Below, one piece after another: positions 1 through 60,096 of a stretch of DNA of 63,263 nucleotides. A model generated the notes under the pieces. That model searched no databases and was not told the origin of the DNA. It saw only the letters and a list, made by a program, of their open reading frames with translations. The translations under genes were made by a program, and so were the position numbers. Position 1 is the stretch's first letter; every line of letters starts with the position of its first letter. Source of the DNA: a virus (taxonomy: Duplodnaviria; Caudoviricetes); IMG/VR virus record IMGVR_UViG_3300013885_000001, positions 1 to 63,263 of that record. One strand, given 5' to 3'.

Positions 1-79
1 CCTTAGTTTGAAATTTATAAATTGAAAGTTAGTATCATTTTATTTTTTTATTAAATTTAAGCTTTTTTATTTTTTTATT
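1..79. repeat. Terminal redundancy, left copy (circular assembly overlap)
   Basis: 1..79 is identical to 63185..63263. Confidence 0.95.
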
Positions 80-150
80 AAATTTAAGCTTTTTTATTTT
101 TTTATTAAATTTAAGCTTTTTTATTTTTTTATTGAATTTAAAACCTTTTT
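38..150. repeat. 27-bp AT-rich tandem repeat, 3 copies plus 1 degenerate copy
   Basis: Palindrome TTAAATTTAA starts at 51, 78 and 105, variant TTGAATTTAA at 132, separated by GC-T6-A-T7-A tracts. Confidence 0.9.
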
Positions 151-298
151 TATATATTTGTCTTTCTTATTATTAGACTCAAGATTTTTTCTTCTATCAA
201 TCTTCTTCATTAAACTTACAGTTATCTTTTTTTTACTTTCTATTATCCATTAGCGACAGTCATAAAATTTAAATACTATAGATACCTAAATATTAAAC

Positions 299-2467
299 AT
301 GAATAAAGACACATATGATGTAGAGCTTGTTTGGCATGGAAAACGACATAAGGAGGTAGAGACAACAAGCACCTCATTCTTTTCAGAAAAGGGTTGGGAG
401 AACAAACTGGTATGGGGTGATAACAAGCTTGTAATGTCCTCGTTGATAAAGCAAGGCTGGGTTGGGAGGATCAATTTGATTTATATTGATCCACCCTTTT
501 TCACGAACAGAAGTTATCATGCTAAGGTGAAACCTACTGATGAACCAAGGGAAGAAGGCTCTATTAATTTGAAACCAGCTTTCTCTGATGTTTGGAAAGG
601 TGGGATTGCTTCTTATCTTCAATACATGTATGAAAGATTGGTATTGATGAGGGAGTTGTTGGCTGAAAATGGTTCTATTTATGTGCATTGCTTTCATCCA
701 GAGACGCCAATATTGATGGGGGATTTCACCCTTAAGAATATCCAAGATGTACAAGCAGGAGACTTAGTTGTATCAGATACCAATAGAGTAAACAAAGTTG
801 TGAGAAAATATAGAAGACCTTATAAAGGAAAGTTGTTGGAAATCAGATATATGGGTAATGTTATCCCCCTGAAGGTTACACCTGAGCATAAGTTTTTTGC
901 CATAAAGAAAGTGTGGAGAAAGAAAATCAGAAATAAATTTAAAAATGGAATAAGCAATAATCTTCATAGTGAGTTTATAGAAAAAATTAGAGCAGATCAA
1001 TTGGAAATAGGAGACTATCTTATCATACCTATAAATGGTGAAATTACTAAGGGAAAATCTTTTATAGAGACCAAAAAATTTATTAGTGAATCTGATACAC
1101 GCTCCAAAAGCATTCCAGAGAAAATTCAAATTGATGCAAAATTCATGCGATGGATTGGGTATTATCTTGCTGAAGGTATGATAGATTATTCTGCTACTAC
1201 TGGTAATCCATCTGGTGTAAATTTTACAACGGGATTAAATGAAATTCATTTGCATGAAGAAATAATCACCTTGACTAAAGAGATATTTAAATTGGATGTT
1301 ATAAAGGTACCTCTTCCTAAATATGGAGGAATGAGGTTAAGGATATGTAGTAATCCTTTAGGTAAACTTATTGAAATTTTATGTGGAACTGGAGCAGGTA
1401 AAAAAAGGTTACATCCCCTTTTCATGACACTGCCGCCTAAATTCCAATATGAGATATTTGATGCGTGGGCTAAAGGTGATGGTTGGAATTACAAAGGACC
1501 AAGAAATGAGAATTCTACAATTGTTGGAACAGTTTCAAAAGAATTAGCATTGCAAATGTTTATAATTTTATTACGAAATCATAAAGGTCCAAGATTAGAG
1601 ATAAGTAGAAATCCCAATGTACTAAAAGATAATCATCATCTTCCTTATAGAATAGTATTGCCTCTTGGTGAAAGGAATAGCCCACGGCACTGGATAGAAG
1701 GTAGATATCTCGCTGTTCCAATTACCTCTATAAGGAAATTTGACTATGAGGGAGATGTATTCAATTTAGAGGTGGAAAACGACCACAGTTATTGTGCTGA
1801 TTTTGTAAAAGTAAGCAATTGTGATTGGCATGTAGGACATTACGTAAAAGTAATGATGGATGAGATTTTTGGGTATGAGAATTTTGTTAATGAAATTGTA
1901 TGGTGTTATACAGGTCCGAGAAAGATATCAAGAGCTTTTTCAAGAAAGCATGATATCATACTACTTTATTCCAAAACTCAAAATTATACATTTAACCAAT
2001 TGACAGTACCTCATAAAAGTGGTCTCCATGACACAGGTATAGTTGAGACTTTTGGAAGATTGAGAGGCGAACGCATTCCTCAAGAACAAATCAAGGAGTT
2101 GGAAGAGAGAGGTAAACTCTTAGAGGATTGGTGGGTAGATATTTGGGCTACAGAGAGATACAGGAGCGAATTATTGGCTTTCGACACCCAAAAACCTGAA
2201 GCTCTTTTAAAAAGAATCATCCTTGCATCCTCTAATCCAGGAGATATTGTAGCTGACTTCTTCTGTGGTTCAGGGACAACATTGGCAGTAGCAGAGAAGT
2301 TAGGGAGAAGATGGATAGGATGCGATTTATCCAAGTTTGCGATTCAGGTTACAAGAAAAAGATTATTGAATATTCATAACTCTCATGATCTGCTTAGTGA
2401 GAAGAAAACAAAGAGAAAGTATGGTAGGTTTGTGAGACTGTTCCAGATTTTGCAGTGTGGTTTATGA
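299..2467 (+). CDS. N6A/N4C DNA methyltransferase (Mod-like, beta class) interrupted by an intein
   Basis: LIYIDPPF catalytic motif, TQKPEALL, DFFCGSGTT SAM-binding motif; conserved IYVH/CDWH segment is split by an insertion. Confidence 0.9.
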   Translation: MNKDTYDVELVWHGKRHKEVETTSTSFFSEKGWENKLVWGDNKLVMSSLIKQGWVGRINLIYIDPPFFTNRSYHAKVKPTDEPREEGSINLKPAFSDVWKGGIASYLQYMYERLVLMRELLAENGSIYVHCFHPETPILMGDFTLKNIQDVQAGDLVVSDTNRVNKVVRKYRRPYKGKLLEIRYMGNVIPLKVTPEHKFFAIKKVWRKKIRNKFKNGISNNLHSEFIEKIRADQLEIGDYLIIPINGEITKGKSFIETKKFISESDTRSKSIPEKIQIDAKFMRWIGYYLAEGMIDYSATTGNPSGVNFTTGLNEIHLHEEIITLTKEIFKLDVIKVPLPKYGGMRLRICSNPLGKLIEILCGTGAGKKRLHPLFMTLPPKFQYEIFDAWAKGDGWNYKGPRNENSTIVGTVSKELALQMFIILLRNHKGPRLEISRNPNVLKDNHHLPYRIVLPLGERNSPRHWIEGRYLAVPITSIRKFDYEGDVFNLEVENDHSYCADFVKVSNCDWHVGHYVKVMMDEIFGYENFVNEIVWCYTGPRKISRAFSRKHDIILLYSKTQNYTFNQLTVPHKSGLHDTGIVETFGRLRGERIPQEQIKELEERGKLLEDWWVDIWATERYRSELLAFDTQKPEALLKRIILASSNPGDIVADFFCGSGTTLAVAEKLGRRWIGCDLSKFAIQVTRKRLLNIHNSHDLLSEKKTKRKYGRFVRLFQILQCGL
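689..1819 (+). mobile_element. Intein (377 aa) with LAGLIDADG homing endonuclease
   Basis: Starts CFHPETPILM; block B VTPEHKF; IGYYLAEG and AWAKGDG motifs; block F VFNLEVENDHSY; ends VSN followed by Cys+1. Confidence 0.9.
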
Positions 2468-2564: not shown

Positions 2565-4106
2565 GTGAGTAATACTATGAATAATAAACTCGATATAAAG
2601 GCACTGGAAAACTGGCTTTGGGAGGCAACATGCAAAATCAGGGGTCCTATTGACGCACCAAAATATAAAGATTACATTTTGCCTCTCATATTCTTAAAGA
2701 GACTTTCCGATGTTTTTGAAGATGAATTAGATGCACTTTCCCAGAGATATGGAAGTAAAGATATTGTTGAACAATTATTGACAAAGGATCATAGTATAGT
2801 CCGCTTCTATCTCCCTAAGGAAGCTAGGTGGGAAGAGATTGCAAAACAAACTTCAAATATTGGAGAGTATTTAACCGATGTTGTTCACATCATTGCCAAA
2901 GAGAACCCTGAGCTTTCTGGTGTAATAGATATAGTGGATTTCAATGCCACCACTGCTGCAGGGCAGAGGATTATCGATGATGAGAGGTTGAAAGCACTAA
3001 TAAATATTTTAGGAAGATACAGATTGGGATTAAAAGATGTTGAGCCAGATATCTTAGGGAGAGCTTACGAATACCTTTTAAGGAAATTTGCAGAAGGTTC
3101 TGGGCAGAGTGCGGGGGAGTTCTATACACCCAAAGAGGTAGCTGTATTGATGTCTTACATTTTAAATCCTGAACCTGGTAATGAAGTGTATGATCCTTGT
3201 TGCGGTTCTGGCGGTTTGTTGATCAAATGTTATCTACGGTTTAGAGATAAATATGGTGCTGACACCTCTATCGAGCCTCTTAGACTCTATGGACAGGAGG
3301 TTTTGTCTTCAACTTACGCTATGGCAAAGATGAACGCTTTTATTCACGATATGGAGGCAGAAATCGCTCTTGGAGACACAATGAACAAACCAGCATTTTT
3401 AACATCTGAAGGATCACTCAGAAAATTCGACTTAGTAACTGCAAATCCTATGTGGAATCAAGCATTTGCGCAATCTGTTTATGAAAACGATCCTTACAAT
3501 AGATTCGTTTTTGGTTATCCTCCATCAAACACCGCAGACTGGGGCTGGATTCAGCACATGTTTGCTTCTTTAAACGATCATGGAAAGATGGCTGTTGTGT
3601 TGGATACGGGGGCTGTTTCAAGAGGAAGCGGTAATGTAGGAAAGAATAGAGAGCGCGATATAAGAAAGGAGTTTGTTGAGAGGGATTTTATAGAAGCGGT
3701 TTTATTGCTGCCTGAAAACATGTTTTACAATACTACCGCACCGGCGATTATCATCGTTATCAATAAGGCAAAACCCATAGAGAGAAGGGGACAGATACTT
3801 CTTATAAACGCTTCAAAGCTCTATGAGAAGGGAAGACCTAAGAATTTCTTGCCTGATGAAAGCATTGAAAAGATAGCAGACATCTATTTGAACTGGCAGG
3901 AAGAGGAGGGAATAAGCAAGATCATAGCGAAGGATGAAGCCGTAAAGAGCGACTATAACTTAAGCCCTTCCCGTTATGTTGCCCAGAACGGAGAAGATGA
4001 AACGTTGCCTTTGGAGGATGCTGTTGTGCAGTTAAAAGAGGCAGAAGAAGAGAGAAAAGAGGCGGATGAAAAATTAATGGTTATTTTGAAAGAGATGGGA
4101 TTGTAA
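2565..4106 (+). CDS. hsdM: Type I RM methyltransferase subunit
   Basis: LENWLWEA N-terminus, GEFYTP, YDPCCGSGG, ANPMW, YNLSPSRY. Confidence 0.93.
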   Translation: MSNTMNNKLDIKALENWLWEATCKIRGPIDAPKYKDYILPLIFLKRLSDVFEDELDALSQRYGSKDIVEQLLTKDHSIVRFYLPKEARWEEIAKQTSNIGEYLTDVVHIIAKENPELSGVIDIVDFNATTAAGQRIIDDERLKALINILGRYRLGLKDVEPDILGRAYEYLLRKFAEGSGQSAGEFYTPKEVAVLMSYILNPEPGNEVYDPCCGSGGLLIKCYLRFRDKYGADTSIEPLRLYGQEVLSSTYAMAKMNAFIHDMEAEIALGDTMNKPAFLTSEGSLRKFDLVTANPMWNQAFAQSVYENDPYNRFVFGYPPSNTADWGWIQHMFASLNDHGKMAVVLDTGAVSRGSGNVGKNRERDIRKEFVERDFIEAVLLLPENMFYNTTAPAIIIVINKAKPIERRGQILLINASKLYEKGRPKNFLPDESIEKIADIYLNWQEEEGISKIIAKDEAVKSDYNLSPSRYVAQNGEDETLPLEDAVVQLKEAEEERKEADEKLMVILKEMGL

Positions 4107-4143
4107 TGATTAAGGACGTGATATCTAAAAGGGGTATGGCAAA

Positions 4144-5643
4144 ATGCGTATTTTATTAGACACAAATATTCTTATTCATAGAGAGGATGATAAGGTAATA
4201 TCTAATAACCTACAATCACTATTAAGAACGCTAAGTAGAATGAAAACTGAAATTCTCATACACCCATTATCTATCAATGAATTGAAACGGGATAAAGATG
4301 AAGAAAGAAAAAAAATAATAATTTCAAAAGTTCAGTCCTACTCCCTATTAGAATCTCCCCCAAATCCCAAAAATGACACTGAGTTTAAAGACAAGGTAAA
4401 TTGGAGGGAAGAGGAAAAAGATATAGAGGATAACATCCTACTATATGCTGTTTACAAAGATGCTGTAGATTTTTTAATTACAGAGGATAAAGGAATCCAT
4501 AAAAAAGCGAAAAATTTGGACATTGATAATCGTGTTTTTCTTATTGATGATGCTTGTGAAATATTTGAAAAAAGTGCACAGACACCTAAAATAACACCCC
4601 CTCCAGCATTGAGAGAGGACTCTGTCTATAATTTGGACATAAACGACCCAATATTTAACCAATTGAAAAAAGATTATCCTGAGTTCGATGATTGGATTAA
4701 GAGAATATCAAGAGAAGGCAGAAAATGTTGGGCGTATTATCGAGAAGATGATAGTATAGGTGCATTACTTATCTATAAAACTGAAGATGAGCCAATAGAT
4801 TCAAAACCTCCGTTACCAAAAAAGAAGAGGTTAAAGTTATCTACATTCATAGTTACCCATGTGGGGCATAAGATAGGAGAACTTTTTATAAAGCTATCTG
4901 TTGATTTTGCTGTTAAGAACAATATCTCAGAGATTTATTTGACCCACTTTACTGAGCCCAATGACCGATTAGTGCAATTAATCACAGAATATGGTTTTTA
5001 TAGGACGGCAGTAAATGAAAGGGGGGAAGATATTTTTGTTAAAGAATTGGTTATTCAGGGGAGATTTGAATATAAACATCCAATAGATGTTGCTAAGAGG
5101 TTCTATCCCAGCTTTTATGATGGTGCACACGTAAATAAGTTTGTAATCCCAATTCAACCTAAATATCACAACAGACTTTTTACTGATTTTTCAGAACGAC
5201 AAACAACAATTACTGAGCATGCTGGGGATTTCATAGTCGAAGGAAACACGATTAAAAAGGCGTATCTAACTCATTCAAGAATAAAAAAGATGAGAACCGG
5301 AGACATTATTTTGTTTTATCGTTCTCAAGAGCAGAGCGAGATTACTTCACTTGGAGTTATTGAATCGGTCTATACTAGAATTCAAAATCCCGACAAAATA
5401 ATAAGGCTAGTGGGTAAAAGATCTGTTTATACAATAAAAGAGATTGAAGAATTTGCTAATAAGCCAACAACTGTTATCTTATTTCTGCATCATTTTCATC
5501 TAAAGAACCCATTACATCTTGATAAATTGAAAGACATGGGAGTTCTAGCTGGGGCTCCTCAAACCGCAGTTGAGATTGATGATAATAGCTACAATAAAAT
5601 AAAAACCAGAGGTGGTATAGATGAACGTTATACTATCCATTAA
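4144..5643 (+). CDS. PIN - GNAT - PUA/EVE(ASCH)-like multidomain protein
   Basis: N-terminal LLDTNILI...FLITEDKG (PIN); central LKLSTFIV..GHKIGELFI...YGFY (GNAT); C-terminal IPIQPKYH...IKKAYL...GDIILFYRS (PUA-like). Confidence 0.8.
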   Translation: MRILLDTNILIHREDDKVISNNLQSLLRTLSRMKTEILIHPLSINELKRDKDEERKKIIISKVQSYSLLESPPNPKNDTEFKDKVNWREEEKDIEDNILLYAVYKDAVDFLITEDKGIHKKAKNLDIDNRVFLIDDACEIFEKSAQTPKITPPPALREDSVYNLDINDPIFNQLKKDYPEFDDWIKRISREGRKCWAYYREDDSIGALLIYKTEDEPIDSKPPLPKKKRLKLSTFIVTHVGHKIGELFIKLSVDFAVKNNISEIYLTHFTEPNDRLVQLITEYGFYRTAVNERGEDIFVKELVIQGRFEYKHPIDVAKRFYPSFYDGAHVNKFVIPIQPKYHNRLFTDFSERQTTITEHAGDFIVEGNTIKKAYLTHSRIKKMRTGDIILFYRSQEQSEITSLGVIESVYTRIQNPDKIIRLVGKRSVYTIKEIEEFANKPTTVILFLHHFHLKNPLHLDKLKDMGVLAGAPQTAVEIDDNSYNKIKTRGGIDERYTIH

Positions 5644-6028
5644 ACCGAAGTACGTGGAATCCATAATGAACGGTGAAAAACTATATGAATTCCGCAAAAG
5701 CATGTTTAGACGAGAAAACGTAGATAGAGCTTACATATATGCCACTTCACCAATTAAAAAAGTTGTTGGAGTTTTCATTATAGGAGGTATTATAGAAGAA
5801 CATCCAAATCGACTATGGGAGGAATGCGGCAATTATTCAGGATTAACTGAATTTGAGTTCTTCAGATATTTTAATGGAAAAAATAAGGGAGTAGCAATTG
5901 AGATAAAAGAACTAGAAAAATTCAACGAACCGTTAGAACTTACGGACATATTTCCAAATATTGTGCCACCACAATCATTCTGTTATGTAGATATGTTCGT
6001 TCCTGCCGGAGGAACAAAAGATGAATAA
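5621..6028 (+). CDS. ASCH domain protein
   Basis: ILSIKPKYVESIMNGEKLYEFRK, IYATSP, PPQSFCY. Confidence 0.88.
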   Translation: MNVILSIKPKYVESIMNGEKLYEFRKSMFRRENVDRAYIYATSPIKKVVGVFIIGGIIEEHPNRLWEECGNYSGLTEFEFFRYFNGKNKGVAIEIKELEKFNEPLELTDIFPNIVPPQSFCYVDMFVPAGGTKDE

Positions 6029-9000
6029 CGACGAACCTGAAGGATACAAAAAGACAGAACTGGGCTTATTGCCGAAGGAGTGGGAGGTTGTGAGATTAAA
6101 AGATGTGGTGACTACAAAGAAAGGTAGGAAACCAAAGACATTATCAGAAGATATTAAGAAAGATTATTTACCATACCTCACTGCAGAATATTTTAGAACA
6201 AAAAGAGCAAAACAATTTGCTTCAACAAAAAACGAATCTCTTATTACTGTTGATAAGGAAGATGTTGTTTTTATTTGGGATGGTTCTAATGCTGGTGATG
6301 TTTTTACAGGTCTGAATGGTGTACTTGCCTCTACAATGATAAAGATATCCCCAAAAAAAGAGAGCTCATTAACAAGGAAAATATTATATTACTACCTAAA
6401 AACAAAATTTTACCAGTTCAATACACAAACTACGGGCTCAACTATTCCCCACGTTAACAAAAACATGTTTGAAAATTTACTTATTCCTCTTCCTCCGCTC
6501 TCTGAACAAAAAAGGATCACTTTTGTTCTCTCTACGATACAGGAAGCAAAAGAGAAGACCGAAGACGTTATAAAAGCAGCGAAAGAACTCAAAAAATCCA
6601 TGATGAAGCATCTCTTCACTTATGGGCCTGTGCCTGTGGAAGAGGCGGAGAATGTGCCGCTCAAAGAGACGGAACTGGGCTTGTTGCCGAAAGATTGGGA
6701 GGTTGTAAGGCTGGGAGATGAAAAGTTTTTCCATATATTGGAAAGTGGAATTGATAGTTTTTCAGGTAAGAAATATTATCTTGCAACCAGCTCAATAGAG
6801 GGGCTGAAATTAATAGGAATTGAACAGGAGATAACCTTTAACAATAGACCATCAAGAGCCAATATGCAACCTGTTTTAAATAGCGTTTGGTTTGCCAGAA
6901 TGGTGGACACTCGAAAGGTTTATGCTTTTTCTGAAGATAATATTGAAGAGATAAACGGATACATTTTATCTACAGGATTTTGTGGTATTAAAACATCTCC
7001 AGAAGTAGACACAGCTTTTTTAAAATTCTATTTTTATTCAGACATCTTTAATAATCTTAAAAATTCTCTTTGCACTGGTGCTGTTCAAGTGTCATTGAAT
7101 AATACAAATGCTAAAAAATTATTAGTCCCACTTCCCTCTCTTTCTGAACAAAAGAGGATTGCCTTTGCTCTCTCTACAGTGCAAAAAGCAATAGAGAGGA
7201 CTGAAGACGTTATAAAAGCTACCAAAGAACTCAAAAAGTCCATGATGAAGCATCTTTTCACCTATGGGCCTGTGCCTATTGAAGAGGCAGAGCATGTGCC
7301 ACTCAAAGAGACGGAACTGGGCTTGTTGCCGAAGGATTGGGAGGTTGTGAGATTAAAAGATGTGGTGACTACAAAGAAAGGTAGGAAACCAAAGACATTA
7401 TCAGAAGATATTAAGAAAGATTATTTACCATACCTCACTGCAGAATATTTTAGAACAAAAAGAGCAAAACAATTTGCTTCAACAAAAAACGAATCTCTTA
7501 TTACTGTTGATAAGGAAGATGTTGTTTTTATTTGGGATGGTTCTAATGCTGGTGATGTTTTTACAGGTCTGAATGGTGTACTTGCCTCTACAATGATAAA
7601 GATATCCCCAAAAAAAGAGAGCTCATTAACAAGGAAAATATTATATTACTACCTAAAAACAAAATTTTACCAGTTCAATACACAAACTACGGGCTCAACT
7701 ATTCCCCACGTTAACAAAAACATGTTTGAAAATTTACTTATTCCTCTTCCTCCGCTCTCTGAACAAAAAAGGATCACTTTTGTTCTCTCTACGATACAGG
7801 AAGCAAAAGAGAAGACCGAAGACGTTATAAAAGCAGCGAAAGAACTCAAAAAATCCATGATGAAGCATCTCTTCACTTATGGGCCTGTGCCTGTGGAAGA
7901 GGCGGAGAATGTGCCGCTCAAAGAGACGGAACTGGGCTTGTTGCCGAAAGATTGGGAGGTTGTAAGGCTGGGAGATGAAAAGTTTTTCCATATATTGGAA
8001 AGTGGAATTGATAGTTTTTCAGGTAAGAAATATTATCTTGCAACCAGCTCAATAGAGGGGCTGAAATTAATAGGAATTGAACAGGAGATAACCTTTAACA
8101 ATAGACCATCAAGAGCCAATATGCAACCTGTTTTAAATAGCGTTTGGTTTGCCAGAATGGTGGACACTCGAAAGGTTTATGCTTTTTCTGAAGATAATAT
8201 TGAAGAGATAAACGGATACATTTTATCTACAGGATTTTGTGGTATTAAAACATCTCCAGAAGTAGACACAGCTTTTTTAAAATTCTATTTTTATTCAGAC
8301 ATCTTTAATAATCTTAAAAATTCTCTTTGCACTGGTGCTGTTCAAGTGTCATTGAATAATACAAATGCTAAAAAATTATTAGTCCCACTTCCCTCTCTTT
8401 CTGAACAAAAGAGGATTGCCTTTGCTCTCTCTACAGTGCAAAAAGCAATAGAGAGGACTGAAGACGTTATAAAAGCTACCAAAGAACTCAAAAAGTCCAT
8501 GATGAAGCATCTTTTCACCTATGGGCCTGTGCCTATTGAAGAGGCAGAGCATGTGCCACTCAAAGAGACGGAACTGGGCTTGTTGCCGAAGGATTGGGAA
8601 GTTGTGAGGCTTGGAGATAAAGGGCATTTTCAATATGGATATACTACTTCTGCTACAGAAGAAGACACAGGAACAAAATTTCTTAGGATAACAGATATAA
8701 AAGAAGATGGTGTTGTAAATTGGGACACAGTTCCTTATGGAATTATTGATGATAACCTACAAAAATTCAAGTTATTTGAAAATGATATCCTTTTTGCAAG
8801 AATAGGTGCTACCACTGGTAAAGCGTGCATAATTGAAGGAAAGATTCCAAACGCTGTTTTTGCTTCTTATCTTATAAGATTTATATCTAACAAAGAACTG
8901 AATCCAAAATATGTATTTTACTTTACTCAAACTAGAGAGTATCAGGAACTTGTTAATGCAGGAAAAGAGGGAAAATTGAAGAAAGGGCTGAGTGCTACTG

Positions 9001-9185
9001 AATTAAAAAACTTTAAAATCCCTCTTCCACCACTCTCAGAACAAAAAAAGATCGCTTCAATCCTCTCTGCTATTGATCAAAAGATCGAAGCCGAAGAGAA
9101 CAAAAAGAGGGCACTTGAAGATCTATTTAAATCGATGCTTAATAATTTAATGACTGCTAAGGTTAGGATTAGTAATGTGGATTGA
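6021..9185 (+). CDS. hsdS: Type I RM specificity subunit with five TRDs (A-B-A-B-C)
   Basis: Five LPxxWEVVRL...PLPxLSEQKxI units joined by the same coiled-coil conserved region. Confidence 0.92.
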   Translation: MNNDEPEGYKKTELGLLPKEWEVVRLKDVVTTKKGRKPKTLSEDIKKDYLPYLTAEYFRTKRAKQFASTKNESLITVDKEDVVFIWDGSNAGDVFTGLNGVLASTMIKISPKKESSLTRKILYYYLKTKFYQFNTQTTGSTIPHVNKNMFENLLIPLPPLSEQKRITFVLSTIQEAKEKTEDVIKAAKELKKSMMKHLFTYGPVPVEEAENVPLKETELGLLPKDWEVVRLGDEKFFHILESGIDSFSGKKYYLATSSIEGLKLIGIEQEITFNNRPSRANMQPVLNSVWFARMVDTRKVYAFSEDNIEEINGYILSTGFCGIKTSPEVDTAFLKFYFYSDIFNNLKNSLCTGAVQVSLNNTNAKKLLVPLPSLSEQKRIAFALSTVQKAIERTEDVIKATKELKKSMMKHLFTYGPVPIEEAEHVPLKETELGLLPKDWEVVRLKDVVTTKKGRKPKTLSEDIKKDYLPYLTAEYFRTKRAKQFASTKNESLITVDKEDVVFIWDGSNAGDVFTGLNGVLASTMIKISPKKESSLTRKILYYYLKTKFYQFNTQTTGSTIPHVNKNMFENLLIPLPPLSEQKRITFVLSTIQEAKEKTEDVIKAAKELKKSMMKHLFTYGPVPVEEAENVPLKETELGLLPKDWEVVRLGDEKFFHILESGIDSFSGKKYYLATSSIEGLKLIGIEQEITFNNRPSRANMQPVLNSVWFARMVDTRKVYAFSEDNIEEINGYILSTGFCGIKTSPEVDTAFLKFYFYSDIFNNLKNSLCTGAVQVSLNNTNAKKLLVPLPSLSEQKRIAFALSTVQKAIERTEDVIKATKELKKSMMKHLFTYGPVPIEEAEHVPLKETELGLLPKDWEVVRLGDKGHFQYGYTTSATEEDTGTKFLRITDIKEDGVVNWDTVPYGIIDDNLQKFKLFENDILFARIGATTGKACIIEGKIPNAVFASYLIRFISNKELNPKYVFYFTQTREYQELVNAGKEGKLKKGLSATELKNFKIPLPPLSEQKKIASILSAIDQKIEAEENKKRALEDLFKSMLNNLMTAKVRISNVD
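6081..8599 (+). repeat. 1257-bp in-frame tandem duplication inside hsdS
   Basis: 6081..7342 matches 7338..8599; identical shadow ORFs are offset by 1257 nt. Confidence 0.92.
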
Positions 9186-9231
9186 TTGATAATGGAAGAA
9201 AGAGAAGATTAAGTTAGGAGGAGAAGTTAGG

Positions 9232-11850
9232 ATGGATAATAAGTTTATAGAGATAGATTTTCCAATAAGATCAGTGAGCGATGAGTCTGCAAGAGAGAAG
9301 AACATAAGACATGGGCATATCTCCACATTACATATATGGTGGGCACGTAGACCTTTAGCATCTTCGAGGGCATCAATATATGCATCACTCACACCAGAAC
9401 CAGAGGATGAAGAAGAGAGGATGAAGAAATCACAGTTTATAGGTGAGCTATCGAAATGGGAGAACTCTTTAAACAAAGATCTCATTGAAAGAGCAAGGGA
9501 AGACATCTTAAAAGCGAACAATGGCAAACCACCGAAAGTCTTAGATCCTTTTGCTGGTGGTGGTGCTATACCATTAGAGGCTTTAAGGTTGGGTTGTGAG
9601 ACATATGCAAGTGATTTAAACCCAGTTGCTGTGCTTATAGAAAAATGCACATTGGAGTATCCACAGAAGTATGGACACAGAGAAGAAGATAGCTATTTTG
9701 GTGGTAAGACAACAAATCCTTTATTGCAAGATGTTAAAAAATGGGGATATTGGGTTTTAGAAGAGGCAAAGAGAGAGATTGGTAAATTTTATCCACCAGA
9801 AGAAGATGGCTCGATACCAGTCGGTTATATCTGGGCAAGAACTATCAGATGTCAAAATCCTGAATGTGGTGCTGAAATACCTTTGGTAAGACAAACATGG
9901 TTAGCTAAAAAGGATAAGAAGAAGATAGCATATAAGATCATCCCTAAAGGTAATAAAATAGACTTTGAGATTAAAGAGGGAGAAGAGATAAATTTTGATC
10001 CTAAAGAGGGAACTACTTCAAAAGCTAAAGTTATATGTCCATGTTGTGGTAGTGGTATAAGTGATAAAGATAACAGGAAACAATTTCAGGAAGGAAAAGC
10101 AGGGCAGAGGATGATTGCTGTTGTTCTCCATCATCCTGATATAAAAGGTAAAACCTATAGATTGGCAACAGACAAGGATTTAGATATCTTCAAAGAAGCA
10201 GAAGCATATTTAGAGAAGAAAAGATCGAAGTTGATGGGTGAGTGGGGAATTGATCCTGTGCCAGATGAACCACTGCCACCAATAGGAACTTTGGGTTTTA
10301 GTGTCCAAAGATATGGCATGACGAAATGGGGTGACCTTTTCAATTCACGTCAGAAGTTGGCATTGATTACTTTTGTGGAGAAGGTCCGACTTGCATATAA
10401 GAAGATGATCGAGGAAGGATATGATGAGGAGTATGCGAAAGCAGTTGTGAGCTATTTGGCACTGATGATAAGTCGCTGTTCTGATTTTGAAAGCAATATT
10501 GTTAGATGGTTTAATCATGTTGAAAATATATGCAATACATTTGCTCGGCAGGCTCTTCCCATAACATGGGATTACTTCGAACTAAATTTATTCTCTCCTG
10601 TTTCCCAAGGAACTATTAAAAGTATGTTTAATCAAATCACTAAAACAATGAAAGGCGCAGTGAATACTCTATCTTCTCCTGCTACCGTTTCCCAATCCTC
10701 CGCTACTTCTTTACCTTACCCTGACAACTACTTTGATGCAGTGATCACGGATCCACCATATTATGATAACGTTCCCTACTCCTACCTCTCTGACTTCTTT
10801 TATGTCTGGCTTAAAAGAACAATTGGTAATTTATACCCTGATCTATTTGCTACACCCTTAACACCAAAGAGCGAGGAGATTGTAGCTTATTCTCATAACA
10901 AGGGAGGTTTTGAAGAAGGGAAGAAATTTTTCGAGGATATGATAACTAAAGCATTTCAGGAGATCTACAGGGTTCTAAAACCTGAAGGTATTGCGTGTAT
11001 CGTCTTTACCCATAAGTCAACAGAGGCATGGGAAACTATTATAAACGCTCTTGTCGCATCAGGCTTGTATCTTACAGCTTCCTGGCCTATACATACGGAA
11101 ATGAAGGAGAGGTTAAGAGCGCAGAAGTCGGGTGCTCTGGCATCATCCATATACATGATCTGTCGCAAACGTGTAAATAAGGAGACAGCCTATTTCAATG
11201 AGATCAAGCTGGAGATCGAGCAGAGAGTAAAGGAAAAACTGGATCAGTTCTGGAACGAAGGTATAAAAGGAGCGGACTTTTTCATATCTGCCATAGGACC
11301 TGCAATGGAAGTTTTTGGGAAGTATGAAAATGTTGAAAAGCCTACAGGAGAGAAAGTATCCGCAAAAGACCTCCTTGAATTAGTGAGAAAGATAGTGATC
11401 GATTACACTTTAGGAAAGGTTTTAAAGACGCATATAGGGAGCGTAGATGCGGAAACAAGGTTTTACATCATATACCGCTTGAACTATGGTCAGGCGAAGG
11501 TTGATTATGACGATGCGAGGAAACTTGCTCAAGCGGTTGGAGTCTCTATAGAGGACTCTAAGTTGATAAAAAAGAGTGGAAGTCTCGTCTCGGTTTTAAA
11601 TGCAGATTATAGAGAACCTGGCGAGGAGAAGAGTATGATAGATGTCCTGCACTCTTGTTTATATTACCAGAAAAGAAACGATAGAGACTCTATAATAAAA
11701 CTGCTGGAAGAAAAGGGATATATAAACAACAACGATTTCTGGTGGTTTGTTCAGGCTTTATCAGAAGTCCTTCCTGATGGAGATAAGGAGAGGCAGATGC
11801 TTCAGGTTTTTATGTTTGGGAATGGTAATGTTGTCAGTAAGGTAAGGTAG
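9232..11850 (+). CDS. DUF1156-type adenine DNA methyltransferase with Zn ribbon
   Basis: [23 protein letters not shown], CxxxxC/CPCC, TDPPYYD. Confidence 0.88.
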
Positions 11851-16851: not shown

Positions 16852-17714
16852 ATGAAGAATCTGTTATTGATAAGGTATCCTGGTGGTAAACAGTATTTGT
16901 TAAAATTCCTACTTCCATTCATTCCTAACCATAAATATTATTTAGAGGTATTCGGTGGTGGGGCATCTGTATTATTGAATAAACCTAAATCATATTTTGA
17001 GGTGTATAATGATATTGATGAGTCATTAGTAAATCTATTTAGAGTTATTAGAGATAAGAGTAAGTATAAGTTGTTTAAAGAAAAGTTACGTTATGTTTTA
17101 TATGCTCGGTCAGAATTTGAGAAGGCGTTAGAGAATCTATATACACATGATGATGTTGATCGGGCAGTCAATTTTTATATAGTAAACAGGATGAGTTTTG
17201 CTTCGATGGGGAAATCATGGTCTCATAGCTTGGGATCACCTCAATGGTCGTTTCCTCCATCAGCTTGGGAGAATGCTAAGAAACGGATAGATGAAATTTA
17301 CGATAGATTTAAATCCGTGCAAATTGAGAATTCTGATTGGTTCGAAGTAATGAATCGATATAATTGGAAGGAGAGCTCGTTTGCTTATTTAGATCCACCT
17401 TATATTCTACCTGATAAAGGTAAGAATGGCTATTATAACCAATCGTTTAGTATTGAGGATCATGAAAACTAGTCGATTATCTCTCATCAGAAAAATGGAA
17501 TGGTAAGATAATGTTAAGTGGCTATAAGAATGAATTATATGAAGAGCTGGAAAAATATGGTTGGGTTAGGAGGGATACTGGGTATAAATTATCATTGCTT
17601 TGGTGTAAAGGGAAGGGAACGAGACCTTTAGTAGAAGAGAGTGTCTGGATGAATTATAATCCAAGCTCAGTTAGAAATCACGGACAATTAAGTTTGGATG
17701 AGTGCTCGATGTAA
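16852..17714 (+). pseudogene. Dam/D12-class adenine methyltransferase, frameshifted
   Basis: RYPGGK, EVFGGG, YLDPPY; stop at 17472, but one extra A at 17465-17468 restores DHEKLVDYL...KIMLSGY to 17714. Confidence 0.78.
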
Positions 17715-22516: not shown

Positions 22517-22675
22517 ATGGTAAGGAATAAGCTTAATGCTGAGATATTAGATTCTCAATTTTGTCAGATATGTGGTAGGAAGCTAAGAAGGGGCAAGAAA
22601 ATAAAGTTATGTGGTAATATATATGTTTGTGAAATGTGCTACAAGAATGAGGTAAAGAATAATGAAAGGCTATAA
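22517..22675 (+). CDS. 52-aa Zn-finger protein (not in ORF track)
   Basis: CQICG...VCEMCY. Confidence 0.55.
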   Translation: MVRNKLNAEILDSQFCQICGRKLRRGKKIKLCGNIYVCEMCYKNEVKNNERL

Positions 22676-23366
22676 TGAGGATTCAGACGTGACAGTAGTA
22701 ATACCCACAGTGTTTAATCTGTTTGACGATCCTAAAGTTCTTTCGCTCCTGTTTGAATGTGATTACTTCAGAAAACTGATTGTAGTGGTAGAGGTTGCTA
22801 ACAAGGACTATATCGAAAAGGCTATGCGGGTCTACTATGATAATATACCAGCTATTATGCTGGTGTTAGATTCTCATCCTTCGGGTTTAGCATCAGCGTT
22901 TAATAAAGGACTTAAATTATCAGATACGAAATATACAATGATGATGGCAGACGATATTTATGCTACAGACGGGTTTATAACATCACTTCAGAGAGCTTTA
23001 GATGAGCATGAGAACTTAGGTTGGGTCTCATCTATTCAGCTTAACCATCCTGAGTTTCCATTTACAGCGATGTGCTCAATGATACGCACAGATCTCTTAA
23101 AGGATGTAGATTATCTTGATGAGAGGTTTAATCCAGCTTGTTTTGATGATGCTGATTTGGTAATGAAGGTTAGATCATACGGTTATAGAGTAGTAGGTGT
23201 TAGATCATCAAAAGTGTATCATTTAGGAGACGCTTTAACTGTTAGCAGACTAACTAATCATAGATCAGGTGAGACAAAGGGTCTTTATGAGATAAACCGT
23301 AAGAAGTTTGAAGAAAAGTGGGGTATTGATAATTTCTATTGGGCGGATATTGAGGTGATTGAATGA
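22662..23366 (+). CDS. Glycosyltransferase family 2
   Basis: VTVVIPT, AFNKGL, MADD, LDERF..FDDADL, KFEEKW. Confidence 0.85.
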   Translation: MKGYNEDSDVTVVIPTVFNLFDDPKVLSLLFECDYFRKLIVVVEVANKDYIEKAMRVYYDNIPAIMLVLDSHPSGLASAFNKGLKLSDTKYTMMMADDIYATDGFITSLQRALDEHENLGWVSSIQLNHPEFPFTAMCSMIRTDLLKDVDYLDERFNPACFDDADLVMKVRSYGYRVVGVRSSKVYHLGDALTVSRLTNHRSGETKGLYEINRKKFEEKWGIDNFYWADIEVIE

Positions 23367-23995
23367 CGGCTCATTGGGAAGTTGAAGATACGTCTTGCAT
23401 GATAGGCATTCCATACATGGGTCCAGTATCTCTTGAGTGGGCACTTATGTTTAGACAGGTTATTCTTCCAAAGGATAGTTTTGTAATGACAAGCTCTGGT
23501 ATGCCTATAGATATAGCAAGGGAAAAGATAGTTAAGAGCTTTATGAAAAGAGACTTTCAATGGTTATTCTTTTTAGACTCTGATATACACATACAACCCG
23601 ATACAATCATGAAAATGATCTCTAAGAAACTTCCTATATTATCTGGTTTATATTATACAAGATATCCACCCATACAACCTGTCTGCTGGAGGATTACAGA
23701 AAGAGGTAGAGAAGTAATACCATTTAAGTTGGGAGATGTTGTAGAGGCAGAAGCAGGTGGATCGGGTTGTTTATTGATACATAGATCCGTCTTTGAGAGA
23801 ATTCTACCACCATACTTTAGATGGACATTGGGTCTCAAGTCTGAAAGGTTGGAGGGTATGTCGGAGGACTTTTATTTTTTCAGGAAGGCAAGAAGGGCTG
23901 GTTTTAAGTTTCTAATTGATACATCTATTCAATGTAAACATGAAGTGAAACAAGTAGTAGATGCAAATGGGAAGTATGGATTCTTGAGAATATGA
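23363..23995 (+). CDS. GT-A fold glycosyltransferase
   Basis: LFFLDSD, GSGCLLIHRSVFE, SEDFYF. Confidence 0.82.
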   Translation: MTAHWEVEDTSCMIGIPYMGPVSLEWALMFRQVILPKDSFVMTSSGMPIDIAREKIVKSFMKRDFQWLFFLDSDIHIQPDTIMKMISKKLPILSGLYYTRYPPIQPVCWRITERGREVIPFKLGDVVEAEAGGSGCLLIHRSVFERILPPYFRWTLGLKSERLEGMSEDFYFFRKARRAGFKFLIDTSIQCKHEVKQVVDANGKYGFLRI

Positions 23996-24972
23996 AAGTG
24001 CTTGAAGTTGGTGGAGGAGAAAATCCGAGATATCATCCGAATTTAGATATAAGAGACTTACCTCAAGTGGATATAGTAGCTGATATAAGAGATGGTATAC
24101 CGTTCTGTGATGGAGTGTTAGATTTGATCTATTGTAACCATCTCATAGAGCATCTCAATTTTAATGAGGCAGAGAGGTTTATAGATGAATGTCATAGAGT
24201 CCTGGCTAAGAAGGGAAGGTTGATAGTTGGATTTCCAGACATCAAAGAGATTGCAGACTATATAAACTACCGACCTATCAACTTACATTCTATAGATATG
24301 ATTTACGGTGCACAGGATTATGAAACTAATCTACATAAGTCGGGTTTTAACACTGAAAGTCTTCGATCAATGGTAGAGAAGAAAGGGTTCAGGCTACTGG
24401 GTGAAACAGTTGCACCTGACAACATTTGTAAGTTGGTTTCATTTATCAAGGATGATCCAGTGATTGAGATATCAGATGATCTGTTCTTTGATCTCATGCG
24501 ATTTCTTGAAGTCTCCAAGAGGTTTATGGGTGATCTTATAAACGATATAGATAAGTATGATAATGAAGGGAGTTTTAGGGATCGGTCAAACTATTACCAG
24601 TCTATACCATTTCTATTGAGAACGGAACTCAGATCATATAACACTAACAATCTCATTAGTAAGTTATCTGGCTTAGATCATATATTGCAGATTGGTGGGA
24701 ATACAACAGTAGCTTTGGGTCTCTCCACTAAAGTAGCTTCTCTTACTCTGTGTCATAAAGGAATAGCTAAGGATTTTGCTGGAAGGAGATTGGATGGTGA
24801 TAATTTGAAAGTGATTGATGTTGGTTGTTTAGGGAAGTTAGATAATAGATTTGATAAAATTGTGTTGCTTGATCCTCATATGATTGATTACAAGATATTG
24901 TTAAGTAAAATAGATGAGTTTGGAGAGATAATTCCATATGAATATACTGATAATCACTCCCACAGTGTTTAG
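23992..24972 (+). CDS. Class I SAM-dependent methyltransferase
   Basis: VLEVGGG, HLIEHL, CHRVLAKKGRL. Confidence 0.8.
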   Translation: MKVLEVGGGENPRYHPNLDIRDLPQVDIVADIRDGIPFCDGVLDLIYCNHLIEHLNFNEAERFIDECHRVLAKKGRLIVGFPDIKEIADYINYRPINLHSIDMIYGAQDYETNLHKSGFNTESLRSMVEKKGFRLLGETVAPDNICKLVSFIKDDPVIEISDDLFFDLMRFLEVSKRFMGDLINDIDKYDNEGSFRDRSNYYQSIPFLLRTELRSYNTNNLISKLSGLDHILQIGGNTTVALGLSTKVASLTLCHKGIAKDFAGRRLDGDNLKVIDVGCLGKLDNRFDKIVLLDPHMIDYKILLSKIDEFGEIIPYEYTDNHSHSV

Positions 24973-25945
24973 GTATCCGATTAAGAGTTATGCGGGTATC
25001 GAATATCTTTGCCAGGAGTTAGCAGTTGGGTTAGTGAAACGAGGACATAAAGTTGATCTTGTAGCACCAAGAGGCTCTAAGATAGAAGGGGTTAATGTTA
25101 TAGAGACGGTTTATCTCAATTCAAATGATAATCTTGAGTATGTCCAATTTTCAATTTTGAAAGATTTTCCACTTGGTAACTATGATGTGATACATGATAA
25201 TACTCATGGCTGTTATATGTATTTACACGAGGATGTCAATAAACTCCCGTTGATATGGACTTTACATGATCCACCACATTTCAAAACTAAACCACCAGTC
25301 AAATATATGAGATTAGTTGCTATATCTAAGAGACAACAGAGTTTATTATCCAAGTTAGGCTTTAGTTCCAAGCTGGTATATAATGGAGTGAAGTTAGATA
25401 ATTATAGATATAATGAGGAGAAGTTAAATAGATTATTATACTTTTCAAGGTTTAGTCAGGAGAAGGGAGCGCATATTGCAATCGATATAGCACATAGGCT
25501 TAGAATGCCTATAGATGTAGCTGGTGGTATTTATGTTCGGAGTAAGGGATATCTTGAGCATATTAAGCGGGTATGTGAGAAGATACCAGAAGCTACATAT
25601 TGGGGAGAGGTATCAAATGAGTTGAGAACAGAATTATTAAGCAGAGCAAAATGTTTAGTGTTCCCTATACTACATGAAGAACCATTTGGGTTAGTTGTAT
25701 TAGAGGCTATGGCATCAGGCACACCTCCCATCGTAAGAAATCGGGGTCCTATGTCTGAATTTGTTAAACATGGAGAGAACGGGTATCTATGTGAGACTGA
25801 CGATGATATACTTAAGGCAGTGGGACAAGTTGATGAGATCGAGAAAAGAAAGTGTTTGGAGACGGCTCAAAGGTTTAGTTCAGATGTTATGATTGAGAAT
25901 TATATAAAGTTGTATGAAGAAGTGATGGATGGTGAAGCTTGGTGA
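24938..25945 (+). CDS. Glycosyltransferase family 4
   Basis: YAGIE, EKGAH, EPFGLVVLEAMASGTP. Confidence 0.9.
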   Translation: MNILIITPTVFRYPIKSYAGIEYLCQELAVGLVKRGHKVDLVAPRGSKIEGVNVIETVYLNSNDNLEYVQFSILKDFPLGNYDVIHDNTHGCYMYLHEDVNKLPLIWTLHDPPHFKTKPPVKYMRLVAISKRQQSLLSKLGFSSKLVYNGVKLDNYRYNEEKLNRLLYFSRFSQEKGAHIAIDIAHRLRMPIDVAGGIYVRSKGYLEHIKRVCEKIPEATYWGEVSNELRTELLSRAKCLVFPILHEEPFGLVVLEAMASGTPPIVRNRGPMSEFVKHGENGYLCETDDDILKAVGQVDEIEKRKCLETAQRFSSDVMIENYIKLYEEVMDGEAW

Positions 25946-26877
25946 ATATCCTGATAATAACTGATAGGGTTATCAATAAAGCGAGTACGGATATGGTTGC
26001 TAAGTTCATAAGAGATCTGAGCTTAGGCTTAGCGAGATTGGGATACAAAGTTAGTCTGTTATGTAAGACAGGATCAGAAATTAATTTAGTCCAAGTATTT
26101 ACTGCTGATAATGAGGAGCAGATGATAAGGAGTATCAGAGATAAGCTTTTTAAATTCGATGTTATAAGCTCTCATACTAATAGAAATCTCATCTATAACT
26201 TGCAGAGCGTAGATAAGTTGCCAGTCTGCGCTACATTTCATGATATACCCAAGAGTATTCCCTCATTGATAGACTTCCCGTGCTTCATAGGGGCGTCTAA
26301 TCTCGTTTGTAATCAGTCAAGTTTAGTAGTCGGTTGTCCTGTTAGGCTAATATACGATACATTAGATCCTTCGAATTATGATGTATGTGGGAAGAAAGGA
26401 GATTATGTCTTGTATAATGCACCTATCACTGAAGATAATGGAGTTTATGATGCATTCGAGATCTGTAAGACTCAGAATCTAAAGATTATTGGTAATATTG
26501 GGAATGAGACGAGCACTTATATTAAGCTAAGCCATAGAAAGGAAATGATAGGTAGAGTGGGAGTTTATGCGGAGAGGTATTTGCTTAGGAATGCCAAGTG
26601 TTTGTTAGTGCCTCAACGTTCTCCAATCTGCAATGGTTTATCTATAGTTGAAGCAAATCTATGTGGAACTCCTGTGGTTATCAGGAATGTTTTAGGGGCT
26701 AATGAATATGTTAGTGAAGGGGTTAACTTTCTATTCGATAAGAATGAAGATGCATCTGATTGCATAGAGCAATTGGGAGAGAGCTCGTCTGTAGATGCAT
26801 CTGTTCATTCATTCGAGGATATGCTAAACCAATATGTGGATTTATTTAGGGACGTGGCTGTATTTGATCGATGGTAA
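25939..26877 (+). CDS. Glycosyltransferase family 4, divergent paralog
   Basis: GLSIVEANLCGTPVV; same layout as the upstream GT4. Confidence 0.72.
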   Translation: MVNILIITDRVINKASTDMVAKFIRDLSLGLARLGYKVSLLCKTGSEINLVQVFTADNEEQMIRSIRDKLFKFDVISSHTNRNLIYNLQSVDKLPVCATFHDIPKSIPSLIDFPCFIGASNLVCNQSSLVVGCPVRLIYDTLDPSNYDVCGKKGDYVLYNAPITEDNGVYDAFEICKTQNLKIIGNIGNETSTYIKLSHRKEMIGRVGVYAERYLLRNAKCLLVPQRSPICNGLSIVEANLCGTPVVIRNVLGANEYVSEGVNFLFDKNEDASDCIEQLGESSSVDASVHSFEDMLNQYVDLFRDVAVFDRW

Positions 26878-46491: not shown

Positions 46492-46878
46492 TTATTCTAT
46501 ATAGTCGTCCTCATCCATCTCTTCGTATAGCCATAATAGCTCGTTGGCTACTTGGTCAATCATCCAGAAAACCAGCTTTTCTACCAACTGATATGTGGTT
46601 TTGATAGTTTCACCAGATGTCTCTCTTGCTAAGAAATCAAAGATATTTTCACACTCATCTAATCTTGTCATATCTATTGCTTTCTGCATGATATCATATT
46701 GGTATTTAACAAACAGCTCTGTTATCTCATCTCTATTTAATATACCAGAGAATATGGATTCTGCTCCATACTCAACTATATCTCGCAGATCCACATCACA
46801 CAAGTCACCAATACCACACCTCTCACTTAGCCAGTCCTTAAACGAAATCTCATCAATACTAAAACTTTGTACTACCAT
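46492..46878 (-). CDS. Small acidic protein, possible Ocr-like DNA mimic
   Basis: About 31 D/E versus 10 K/R; acidic tail EEMDEDDYIE; own promoter motif. Confidence 0.45.
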   Translation of the reverse strand: MVVQSFSIDEISFKDWLSERCGIGDLCDVDLRDIVEYGAESIFSGILNRDEITELFVKYQYDIMQKAIDMTRLDECENIFDFLARETSGETIKTTYQLVEKLVFWMIDQVANELLWLYEEMDEDDYIE

Positions 46879-46894
46879 TTTTTGTCATCTCCAC

Positions 46895-46914
46895 ATATTG
46901 TTTAAGAGTTTTCT
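46895..46914 (-). promoter_or_regulatory. Conserved viral promoter-like motif
   Basis: Reverse complement AGAAAACTCTTAAACAATAT. Confidence 0.75.
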
Positions 46915-47060
46915 TAAGAATCTCACTCCTTCATAACCAATCATATAAGAAGCATAGACGGCATTTAAACGTTAACTAAATAGCCATCTAATGTTTCTAT
47001 ATTAGGATCATATTTACCTTCTCATATTCTCTTTAATTTCATCTAATCCAATCATATTTT

Positions 47061-48586: not shown

Positions 48587-48947
48587 CTCTATTCCTCACA
48601 AGCACAGTTTCATACTTCTCAATCTCACTCAGTAAACTATCTTTATCAACCGCACTTCGTAAGATCTCGTTGTTCTCATCTTTATGCAATATCAGGACTT
48701 TGTTCTCATTATGGTTTAGTATAAACATAGGTGTTCTCACTAATGATAGCAATTTAGCAAATGCCACTTTATCCATCTCTTTAATAGAACAATCATACGG
48801 TAGCCCTAACTCAATGCTTTTTAGGTCTTCTTTTCTATCAGGAAAAACATACTTCCCATTTGGCAGTCTGCTCATGATCTTGCCTCCTTTCTTATAAAAG
48901 TAAAGGATCTCTCTTTTGTTGAATAACTCCTTATTCATATCCTCCAC
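48573..48947 (-). CDS. Hypothetical protein
   Basis: Coupled ORF in the minus-strand operon. Confidence 0.6.
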   Translation of the reverse strand: MEDMNKELFNKREILYFYKKGGKIMSRLPNGKYVFPDRKEDLKSIELGLPYDCSIKEMDKVAFAKLLSLVRTPMFILNHNENKVLILHKDENNEILRSAVDKDSLLSEIEKYETVLVRNRDVKR

Positions 48948-49582
48948 CTAATATCACCTCCTTGTATAATACACTCAACATCCTTAAGATCTCTCTCATA
49001 GATATGTGCTGATACACTTAGTATATTAATACCACCAGACGAAACAGATAGCTCGTTTGCCACATAATCCTGTAATCTTGAAAGTGCATGAACATTATAT
49101 GGATACGCACCATAGAAATCATGTGATCTAAACACTGATGTCATCTCCAAGATTGAATTTCTTAGCTTAAAATCCACCATAATCAAGCAAGGAGATTCAC
49201 TGCTGGTTAAATCTACCTTAGGCATCCAAGTGGTAGCAGTTCCTCTTTTTGATGTTCTGTTATGCTTGAGCTTGTTTATTATTAGTTGTATCTGATCAAC
49301 ATCTCTCCTAAGCCTCTCTCCATATGTATAGATAAATCCCTTATTATCAGGATTTAACAATTGATCCTCATACTCTCTAAGCATTTGATGTCGTAAACTG
49401 GGATACTCGTCATGTGGATATTCAATCCTGGTTGCTAAATTTAATATCTCTCTTATAGTGTATCTTCTATCTCTAACATCCAGCCCATAGTCCATAATAA
49501 GCTTTAGTCCTCTTAACCAAACATCATTCACTGATCGTCCTCTTATAAACCGACCTACCTTATAGGTTACATCCATATTCAT
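48935..49582 (-). CDS. thyA: Thymidylate synthase (archaeal ThyA-like)
   Basis: YTYGERL, PCL, FRSHD..GAYPYN, SAHIYE. Confidence 0.85.
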   Translation of the reverse strand: MNMDVTYKVGRFIRGRSVNDVWLRGLKLIMDYGLDVRDRRYTIREILNLATRIEYPHDEYPSLRHQMLREYEDQLLNPDNKGFIYTYGERLRRDVDQIQLIINKLKHNRTSKRGTATTWMPKVDLTSSESPCLIMVDFKLRNSILEMTSVFRSHDFYGAYPYNVHALSRLQDYVANELSVSSGGINILSVSAHIYERDLKDVECIIQGGDIRWRI

Positions 49583-50459: not shown

Positions 50460-50474
50460 TTTTACATCCTCCAT

Positions 50475-50494: not shown

Positions 50495-50505
50495 TAAACT
50501 TTCCT

Positions 50506-60067: not shown

Positions 60068-60096
60068 ATTTTACCTCCTTAATTTTTTCTTATCAC

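Follow-up and report, generated by a model that had tools for sequence, protein, structure and literature searches.

The genome of a tailed virus, IMG/VR record IMGVR_UViG_3300013885_000001 (63,263 nucleotides (nt); hereafter the window, meaning the whole stretch of DNA that was analysed), encodes a Type I specificity (S) subunit with five target recognition domain (TRD) modules in a single reading frame. The gene, hsdS (6021..9185, + strand), reads A-B-A-B-C, where A, B and C are three different TRDs and the A-B block is present as two exact tandem copies, and it is accompanied by a partner hsdM on the same strand. We conclude that this five-module hsdS is a real, extreme, virus-borne example of a form of gene growth already described in bacteria. 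The full proposal, that it is a recombination-grown S subunit of a viral methylase lacking HsdR and providing more than one specificity, we rate at slightly better than even.

The hsdS open reading frame (ORF) starts with ATG, has GGAGG 8 nt upstream of the start, and is unbroken across 3165 nt, giving a product of 1054 amino acids (aa). A Pfam scan of this product found five Methylase_S (PF01420) stretches (E 4.3e-97), and PADLOC matched it to Specificity_I (3e-141). The motif TELGLLPK opens every unit, and cutting the protein at this recurring motif gave five units of 205, 214, 205, 214 and 205 residues. Unit 1 (6054..6668, +; residues 12-216) consists of TRD A and a central-type helix, and unit 2 (6669..7310, +; residues 217-430) of TRD B and a central-type helix; unit 3 (7311..7925, +; residues 431-635) and unit 4 (7926..8567, +; residues 636-849) are the second copies of A and B, each again with a central-type helix, and unit 5 (8568..9182, +; residues 850-1054) is TRD C with a C-terminal-type helix. 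Unit 3 is identical to unit 1 at 204 of 205 residues and unit 4 to unit 2 at all 214. The three TRD types align poorly with one another outside the linkers, and each has its own relatives: at 60 bits or more, A matched 43 domains, B 16 and C 98. Each type also occurs, in either position, in ordinary two-TRD relatives.

This anatomy agrees with an initial annotation, made from the sequence alone, that had described a 1054-aa HsdS with three distinct TRDs in the order A-B-A-B-C. The same annotation called the linkers near-identical, which was true in part: the linkers after A and after B have 193 of 225 nt in common (86%), with a longest exact run of 32 nt, and the four internal helices are all of the central type, but the last helix, after C, is the C-terminal type of two-TRD relatives. 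By domain content, fold and partner the product is an HsdS, despite breaking the two-TRD rule. It has the same fold, joint motifs and helix motifs as the canonical HsdS of M. jannaschii, 1YF2, which has two modules as opposed to five; 1yf2_A is the best match of unit 5 (E 7.7e-32), and the full-length structural model aligns with it at Z 28.8 and a root-mean-square deviation of 3.8 over 387 aligned residues. The TRDs and conserved helices of a Type I S subunit are present, and at least three consecutive TRDs, each with a helical connector, lie in one frame, as in other multi-TRD HsdS proteins.

The repeat within the gene is a 1262-nt identical run at a period of 1257 nt (6081-7342 = 7338-8599), so that the tandem duplication of the A-B block extends over 6081..8599 (+). 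There are two copies, in frame (1257 nt equals 419 codons), which bears out the apparently exact in-frame 1257-bp duplication first reported. The run is bounded by mismatches at offset 1257 at positions 6051, 6056, 6068 and 6080 and from 7343 onward, and the whole window contains no other long repeat except a 79-nt terminal one. The junction between the copies (7311..7352, +), where the helix after B leads into TRD A, is chimeric: on the left it is the same as the joint before C and on the right the same as the N-terminal joint, with the crossover within 7338-7342, a 5-nt overlap inside the conserved motif that opens each TRD. This position of the crossover is that of a gene formed by recombination at TRD-flanking repeats. 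Sequence words that span both 7337 and 7343 occur once in the window, and no exact run common to the N-terminal joint and the joint before C, as read from the joint sequences, exceeds 11 nt. Because the parental joints cannot supply words across 7337-7343, a de Bruijn assembler could not have invented them; the reads must have carried them, and the N-terminal joint must therefore once have recombined with the joint before C. The simplest carrier of such a joint is a tandem duplication; the joint would also be present on an excised A-B circle. The second A-B copy is probably a very recent in-frame duplication.

The chimeric joint bears directly on an alternative raised as a caveat in the initial annotation, namely that the perfect duplication is an assembler's rendering of mixed alleles. 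Under this explanation the second A-B block is an assembly product, and the real gene is A-B-C or several alleles with common joints have been threaded as a loop. The joint words lift the caveat in part, because helix-after-B followed by TRD A cannot be derived from parental joints whose common run is at most 11 nt. The same 1054-aa product is also on record on four JGI/IMG contigs, which come from one source and are possibly not independent. The identity of the copies over 1262 nt still fits the alternative, as a graph edge walked twice would look the same and two identical copies are what an assembler prints after a single walk of a graph loop; the true A-B copy number could be two or more. 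Even if the second block were collapsed, a three-TRD gene would stay, a form that the initial annotation also calls atypical (see the counts in relatives below).

Further evidence on this point came from public sequencing data. Fourteen public runs in six studies matched as contigs, and four runs from four studies, all from oil-field or crude-oil samples, were compared with the window; the results that follow refer to the contig pieces listed for these four runs. Contigs with zero differences cover 4031-6124 and 4047-6127, which indicates that the same or a near-identical element is present in those runs, and the virus is from oil-field-type habitats. The bin 6771-7137 in TRD B had no cover in any of the four runs, and the bin 7872-8238 had next to none. 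With TRD B uncovered these runs could not test the duplication, and the hole proves nothing. Several observations nevertheless weigh against a true duplication. No contig piece among those listed bridges the B-to-A joint, and the sole piece there starts exactly at 7338. In two runs TRD A had a greater contig depth than the flank specific to the virus (272 vs 96.5 and 665 vs 156), which implies that A is also present in other alleles and makes mixed alleles a real risk; in the other two runs TRD A was near the flank (93 vs 95.8, and 54.2 in a single contig across). TRD A was found in more than one context. In other contigs hsdM runs straight into a different hsdS start, 4102 being followed, after 32 unrelated letters, by 7919 or 8561. 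In still others the conserved joint (6720, 7352 or 7977) is connected through unknown letters to the C-terminal helix at 9046; such joints and helices flanking other sequence also accord with growth of hsdS at these repeats. Other alleles with common joints and helices but other TRDs are clearly present in the community, which favours an assembly product. Weighing the joint and the recorded contigs together with these observations, we consider an assembly origin of the second block unlikely, while taking it seriously, and think there is a fairly good chance that real molecules carry at least two A-B blocks.

A gene of this plan is rare. HsdS proteins normally have two TRDs, as the initial annotation stated, and among 129 HsdS ORFs in 160 fetched loci we counted 122 with two units, six with one and one with three. 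In 120 listed relatives of 579-1845 aa, 98 had two units, 13 had one, eight had three and only the query itself had five; Pfam found three Methylase_S stretches in 4 of 35 relatives scanned. The best 150 of 84,936 matches, from a search of 1.84 billion representatives, were all 228-565 aa long. Only 11 of 50,697 phage records matched the hsdS product, none of them across more than 80% of the query, and a viral contig collection, from which near-identical records may be left out, gave nothing when searched with HsdS, the exact 41-nt joint, PDC-M11A (see below) or a degenerate central-helix motif. No second five-module HsdS was found in these searches of relatives. The clear three-unit relatives (P0002-P0005 and L016) follow the same plan, each combining three TRDs that differ from one another with internal helices at 99% to full identity and a last helix of another kind, and we conclude that three-module forms arise repeatedly but rarely. 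The HsdS of L016 (265-2259), from a metagenome contig of 2.4 kb, has three TRDs and two internal linkers that match at 99% across 300 nt, and its plan is that of the collapsed A-B-C form. Five candidates for natural single-module relatives (P0147, P0199, P0255, P0265 and P0268) were set aside, as they look like fragments and so give no indication of which helix type pairs with itself.

That multi-TRD forms are rare and each unique is as expected for short-lived by-products, and this counts against the full proposal. In a second alternative the duplication exists but has no functional effect. It would be a passing by-product of the shuffling of TRDs: the last unit and one internal unit form a single core, the other modules are pushed aside, and the protein has a single specificity or reduced activity. 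In line with this explanation, none of the multi-TRD relatives forms a conserved lineage, and only the last helix of the viral protein is of the C-terminal type, whose partner in all two-TRD relatives is a central helix. In Helicobacter pylori the N-terminal module of a comparable protein, JHP1422, is described as inactive alone (PMC3936762). The same report, however, describes the native three-TRD protein as methylating two sites (PMC3936762), and the viral ORF has stayed intact across 3165 nt.

Structure predictions addressed which modules could pair. The S subunit is described as two TRD-helix halves whose helices zip together antiparallel, with one HsdM bound per TRD (PMC3874165). Unit 1 and unit 2, predicted as separate chains, scored 0.77, above the best control at 0.46, and passed a mark that solved complexes reached in 116 of 157 cases and mismatched pairs in 2 of 215; the alignments used were made for this analysis. 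Runs agreed in at least 98% of contacts, the predicted local distance difference test (pLDDT) score of the partner was at least 90, and the contacts ran antiparallel along the two central-type helices. Pairing of two central-type helices in the model argues against a silent duplication, although the pass may reflect mere likeness to solved S subunits. The full-length AlphaFold model had a mean pLDDT of 62.6, with residues 243-388, 407-493 and 617-791 below 50, and built one core from units 1 and 5, the core that aligns with 1yf2_A (model range 7..1052). A single core is what a silent duplication would give, but confidence in the model is limited to units 1 and 5, the only ones on which MAFFT placed the two-TRD rows. 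This limit counts against the full proposal, and the unit 1 plus unit 5 core, being alignment-driven, was set aside as support. With the activity of the native H. pylori protein and the unit 1-unit 2 model on the other side, a silent duplication appears to us quite improbable.

In the reading that we favour, a virus-encoded Type I methyltransferase (HsdM plus HsdS) would act without HsdR, and its hsdS would have grown by unequal recombination at TRD-flanking repeats. A three-TRD A-B-C gene would have arisen from two-TRD alleles, and a very recent crossover between the N-terminal motif and the same motif before C would have produced the exact A-B duplication. The modules would pair two at a time through antiparallel helices to give ordinary two-TRD cores, with two HsdM per core, and so more than one bipartite N6-methyladenine (m6A) specificity could come from a single hsdS gene. 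The B:C pair would be the most likely, as these modules are adjacent and combine a central with a C-terminal helix; A:B would be likely, through two central helices, and A:C possible. A leftover module may pair in trans. Viral DNA could in this way be pre-methylated against several host Type I systems, and we infer from this analysis that the five-module protein is probably a multispecific, self-protecting methylase.

The initial annotation had proposed that recombination between the linkers could change the gene in frame, to A-C, A-B-C or longer variants, without an invertase, that the locus might be an accordion of specificity, and that one polypeptide could offer several TRD pairings. The last proposal has an experimental precedent in a three-TRD HsdS (PMC3936762). 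The logic of the first proposal is right, given a joint in a conserved motif, linkers that are 86% alike and no inverted repeats either in 5000-10500 or in the whole window. The accordion was supported only as regards the substrates for expansion and collapse, which are present: two perfect 1257-bp copies should expand and collapse readily. The order B-A is only a circular permutation of A-B, so that the duplication adds no new neighbour pair, and such changes would affect specificity less than they affect dosage and valency. What it allows is the formation of A:B and B:C cores on one chain at once, with twice the number of A and B modules. A bolder version, in which a single hsdM and a single hsdS, between them drawing on three TRD types, provide at least three bipartite specificities at once and recombination at the common joints swaps and amplifies the TRD set so that it follows the Type I systems that local hosts carry, seems to us unlikely; if true, it would be the Type I counterpart of multispecific phage methylases.

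The closest published likeness is to the three-TRD HsdS of the H. pylori J99 system JHP1422/JHP1423 (M.Hpy99XV), which is described as having more than two consecutive TRDs in one ORF, each flanked by helical connectors, and an internal duplication of part of the gene. The second and third of the three TRDs in JHP1422 are identical, and the protein together with its HsdM methylates two sites, AAGN5CTT and AAGN6TAAAG. Constructs with two modules showed which TRD pair reads which site, the last module alone works as a homodimer, and clones from a single DNA preparation vary in module number (PMC3936762). Two specificities have been shown experimentally for JHP1422 and are proposed here. The two proteins differ in extent, as JHP1422 has three modules, two distinct TRDs and a single TRD duplicated whereas the viral protein has five modules, three TRDs and a two-TRD block duplicated, and in setting, as JHP1422 is bacterial and the viral hsdS is without HsdR. 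The mechanism resembles domain movement (DoMo) in Type I S genes of the form x-TRD-y-x-TRD-y, in which recombination at flanking repeats moves, deletes or adds TRDs to give one, two or three, and the viral B-to-A joint falls in exactly this type of repeat (PMC3077401). The chromosomes for which DoMo is described are those of H. pylori, S. pyogenes and M. agalactiae, and the portion of that report available to us does not mention growth past three TRDs (PMC3077401).

Two other bacterial arrangements change Type I specificity, or are proposed to do so, by different means. In Mannheimia haemolytica as well as in Fusobacterium nucleatum, phase-variable 'extended' HsdS proteins with three TRDs have been described and altered methylase specificity proposed (PMC7383803). 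As in the virus, the third TRD is read through into the same polypeptide, but the switch is a frame-shifting simple-sequence repeat (PMC7383803), and no such tract is present in the viral hsdS. Inverting hsdS shufflons such as SpnD39III likewise change specificity within a population by TRD reassortment; they are described as needing several hsdS copies, inverted repeats and usually a recombinase (PMC4190663, PMC4948785), whereas the viral locus is one gene with direct repeats only. Neither inverted repeats nor extra hsdS copies nor a recombinase were found, the last among the ORFs scanned with Pfam, so the locus is not an inverting shufflon.

For a virus, the closest functional analogy is with the multispecific Type II methylases, in which several TRDs are strung in one polypeptide and give one enzyme several targets. 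Those with up to five TRDs are phage cytosine methylases. They are monomeric with one TRD active at a time, whereas Type I TRDs must pair, with two HsdM. Up to five consecutive TRDs are described for these enzymes (PMC3510504). A literature search, judged mostly by title or the start of the abstract, gave no apparent S subunit with four or five TRDs, and among the papers listed it found no multi-TRD HsdS encoded by a phage or an archaeal virus. Already published are the gain and loss of TRDs through recombination at the repeats beside them (PMC3077401), S subunits with three TRDs (PMC7383803) and two specificities from such a subunit (PMC3936762). What is new here is the number of modules, five, the presence of three TRDs that differ from one another, and the setting, which is viral and has no nuclease.

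The window is a complete 63-kb tailed-virus genome whose ends repeat over 79 nt. It encodes a terminase, portal, prohead protease, capsid protein and tape measure, and genes for replication and metabolism that include PCNA, a family-B polymerase, an ERCC4 plus HhH nuclease, a KaiC/RadA-like ATPase, an ATP-dependent ligase, a ribonucleotide reductase with an intein-like insert, QueC and a thymidylate-synthase-like protein. The set of replication genes suggests an archaeal host. No tRNA genes were found in the window, and a promoter and terminator scan gave sites no more numerous than in shuffled sequence. The nearest terminase relatives are at most 38% identical, and those of the polymerase at most 25% among phage records. 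No HsdR or helicase domains were found in the 44 ORFs scanned with Pfam, which include every ORF of at least 500 aa of the 63-kb genome, and the virus therefore encodes a Type I methylase without its nuclease.

The partner gene hsdM (2565..4106, +) encodes a 513-aa Type I m6A methylase subunit (Pfam N6_Mtase 9e-92 and HsdM_N 1.7e-26; PADLOC MTase_I 7e-210). Its S-adenosylmethionine (SAM) motif is present and its motif IV reads NPMW, the form also found in 72 of the 73 relatives compared, and HsdM looks intact from its sequence. HsdM relatives of 64-81% identity span Atribacteria, Caldiserica, Bacteroidales, methanogens and many other anaerobic bacteria and archaea. Two genes are inserted between hsdM and hsdS that PADLOC assigns to a candidate defence system: one encodes a 499-aa PDC-M11A-like PIN-domain protein (4144..5643, +; PADLOC PDC-M11A 1.2e-165; Pfam PIN_3 3.9e-05, below the curated cut-off) and the other a 135-aa PDC-M11B-like small protein (5621..6028, +; PADLOC PDC-M11B 1e-48) whose end overlaps the hsdS start. 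This arrangement raises a third alternative, that hsdM, PDC-M11A/B and hsdS together are a virus-carried defence against competing viruses or plasmids, with the PIN-domain pair as an effector replacing HsdR, and have no part in self-protection. The PADLOC matches, the position of the two genes with gene ends overlapping or close, and the presence of an M11 gene between hsdM and hsdS in three cellular relatives (3 of 119 loci) are consistent with such a defence. On the other side, hsdM is followed directly by hsdS in 83 of the 119 loci, a literature search by name gave, in each of the papers listed, a single mention of PDC-M11 and no known function, and four other nuclease-less methylases in the virus fit the theme of self-protection. 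We therefore consider a defence role very unlikely and retain the interpretation as a self-methylating enzyme, with which those four genes are in keeping.

The first 17.5 kb of the window are rich in methylases, HsdM and HsdS being joined there by further methylase genes. A 722-aa N6/N4 methylase (299..2467, +; Pfam N6_N4_Mtase 1.9e-46) carries an intein-like insert (Pfam Intein_splicing 6e-08, below the curated cut-off). Downstream of hsdS lies an 872-aa DUF1156/HmaB-like adenine methylase (9232..11850, +; Pfam DUF1156 5e-22; PADLOC HmaB 7e-151), which stands without Hma helicase and ATPase genes, and a 206-aa Dam-like D12 methylase follows at 16852..17472 (+; Pfam MethyltransfD12 8.7e-21). 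The public-run contigs contain an HmaB-like version that is ∼9% different, at ∼10x the depth of the virus-specific part, and hsdM is likewise at ∼10x.

Elsewhere in the genome, the ribonucleotide reductase large subunit (51113-53446) has an intein-like insert (Intein_splicing 7e-08, below the curated cut-off; PT-HINT 5.5e-07), and the thymidylate-synthase-like gene and QueC lie at 48935-49582 and 53480-54109, which in a methylase-rich virus hints at further DNA base modification (7-deazaguanine or a modified pyrimidine). At the contig ends (1-141 and 63185-63263), the 79-nt direct terminal repeat continues into an A+T-rich tandem array with a 27-nt unit present 3.9 times (38-141), and a second array of 29/58-nt repeats lies at 62120-62261; these elements could be replication-origin or packaging signals. 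A 51-nt motif is present three times (46867-46917, 50447-50497 and 60069-60119), just upstream of minus-strand gene blocks, with copies 71-73% alike and a core that ends in a conserved 21-nt block, and may be a common promoter or regulator site. A run of glycosyltransferase genes (GT2, and GT4/GT1 twice) with a methyltransferase occupies 22662-26877, with the block that contains the ligase on one side and the genes for the head protease and capsid on the other.

As the underlying principles are already published, the gain from the viral hsdS is one of extent and setting. If real and active, the five-module protein would be the largest natural S subunit in these searches and a natural test of how many two-TRD cores a single chain can form. 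Whether a central helix pairs with another central helix or with a C-terminal one is also of practical importance if methylases are to be engineered to a chosen specificity. For the biology of the virus, a real and active protein would mean that Type I restriction is countered with a multispecific Type I methylase instead of an inhibitor.

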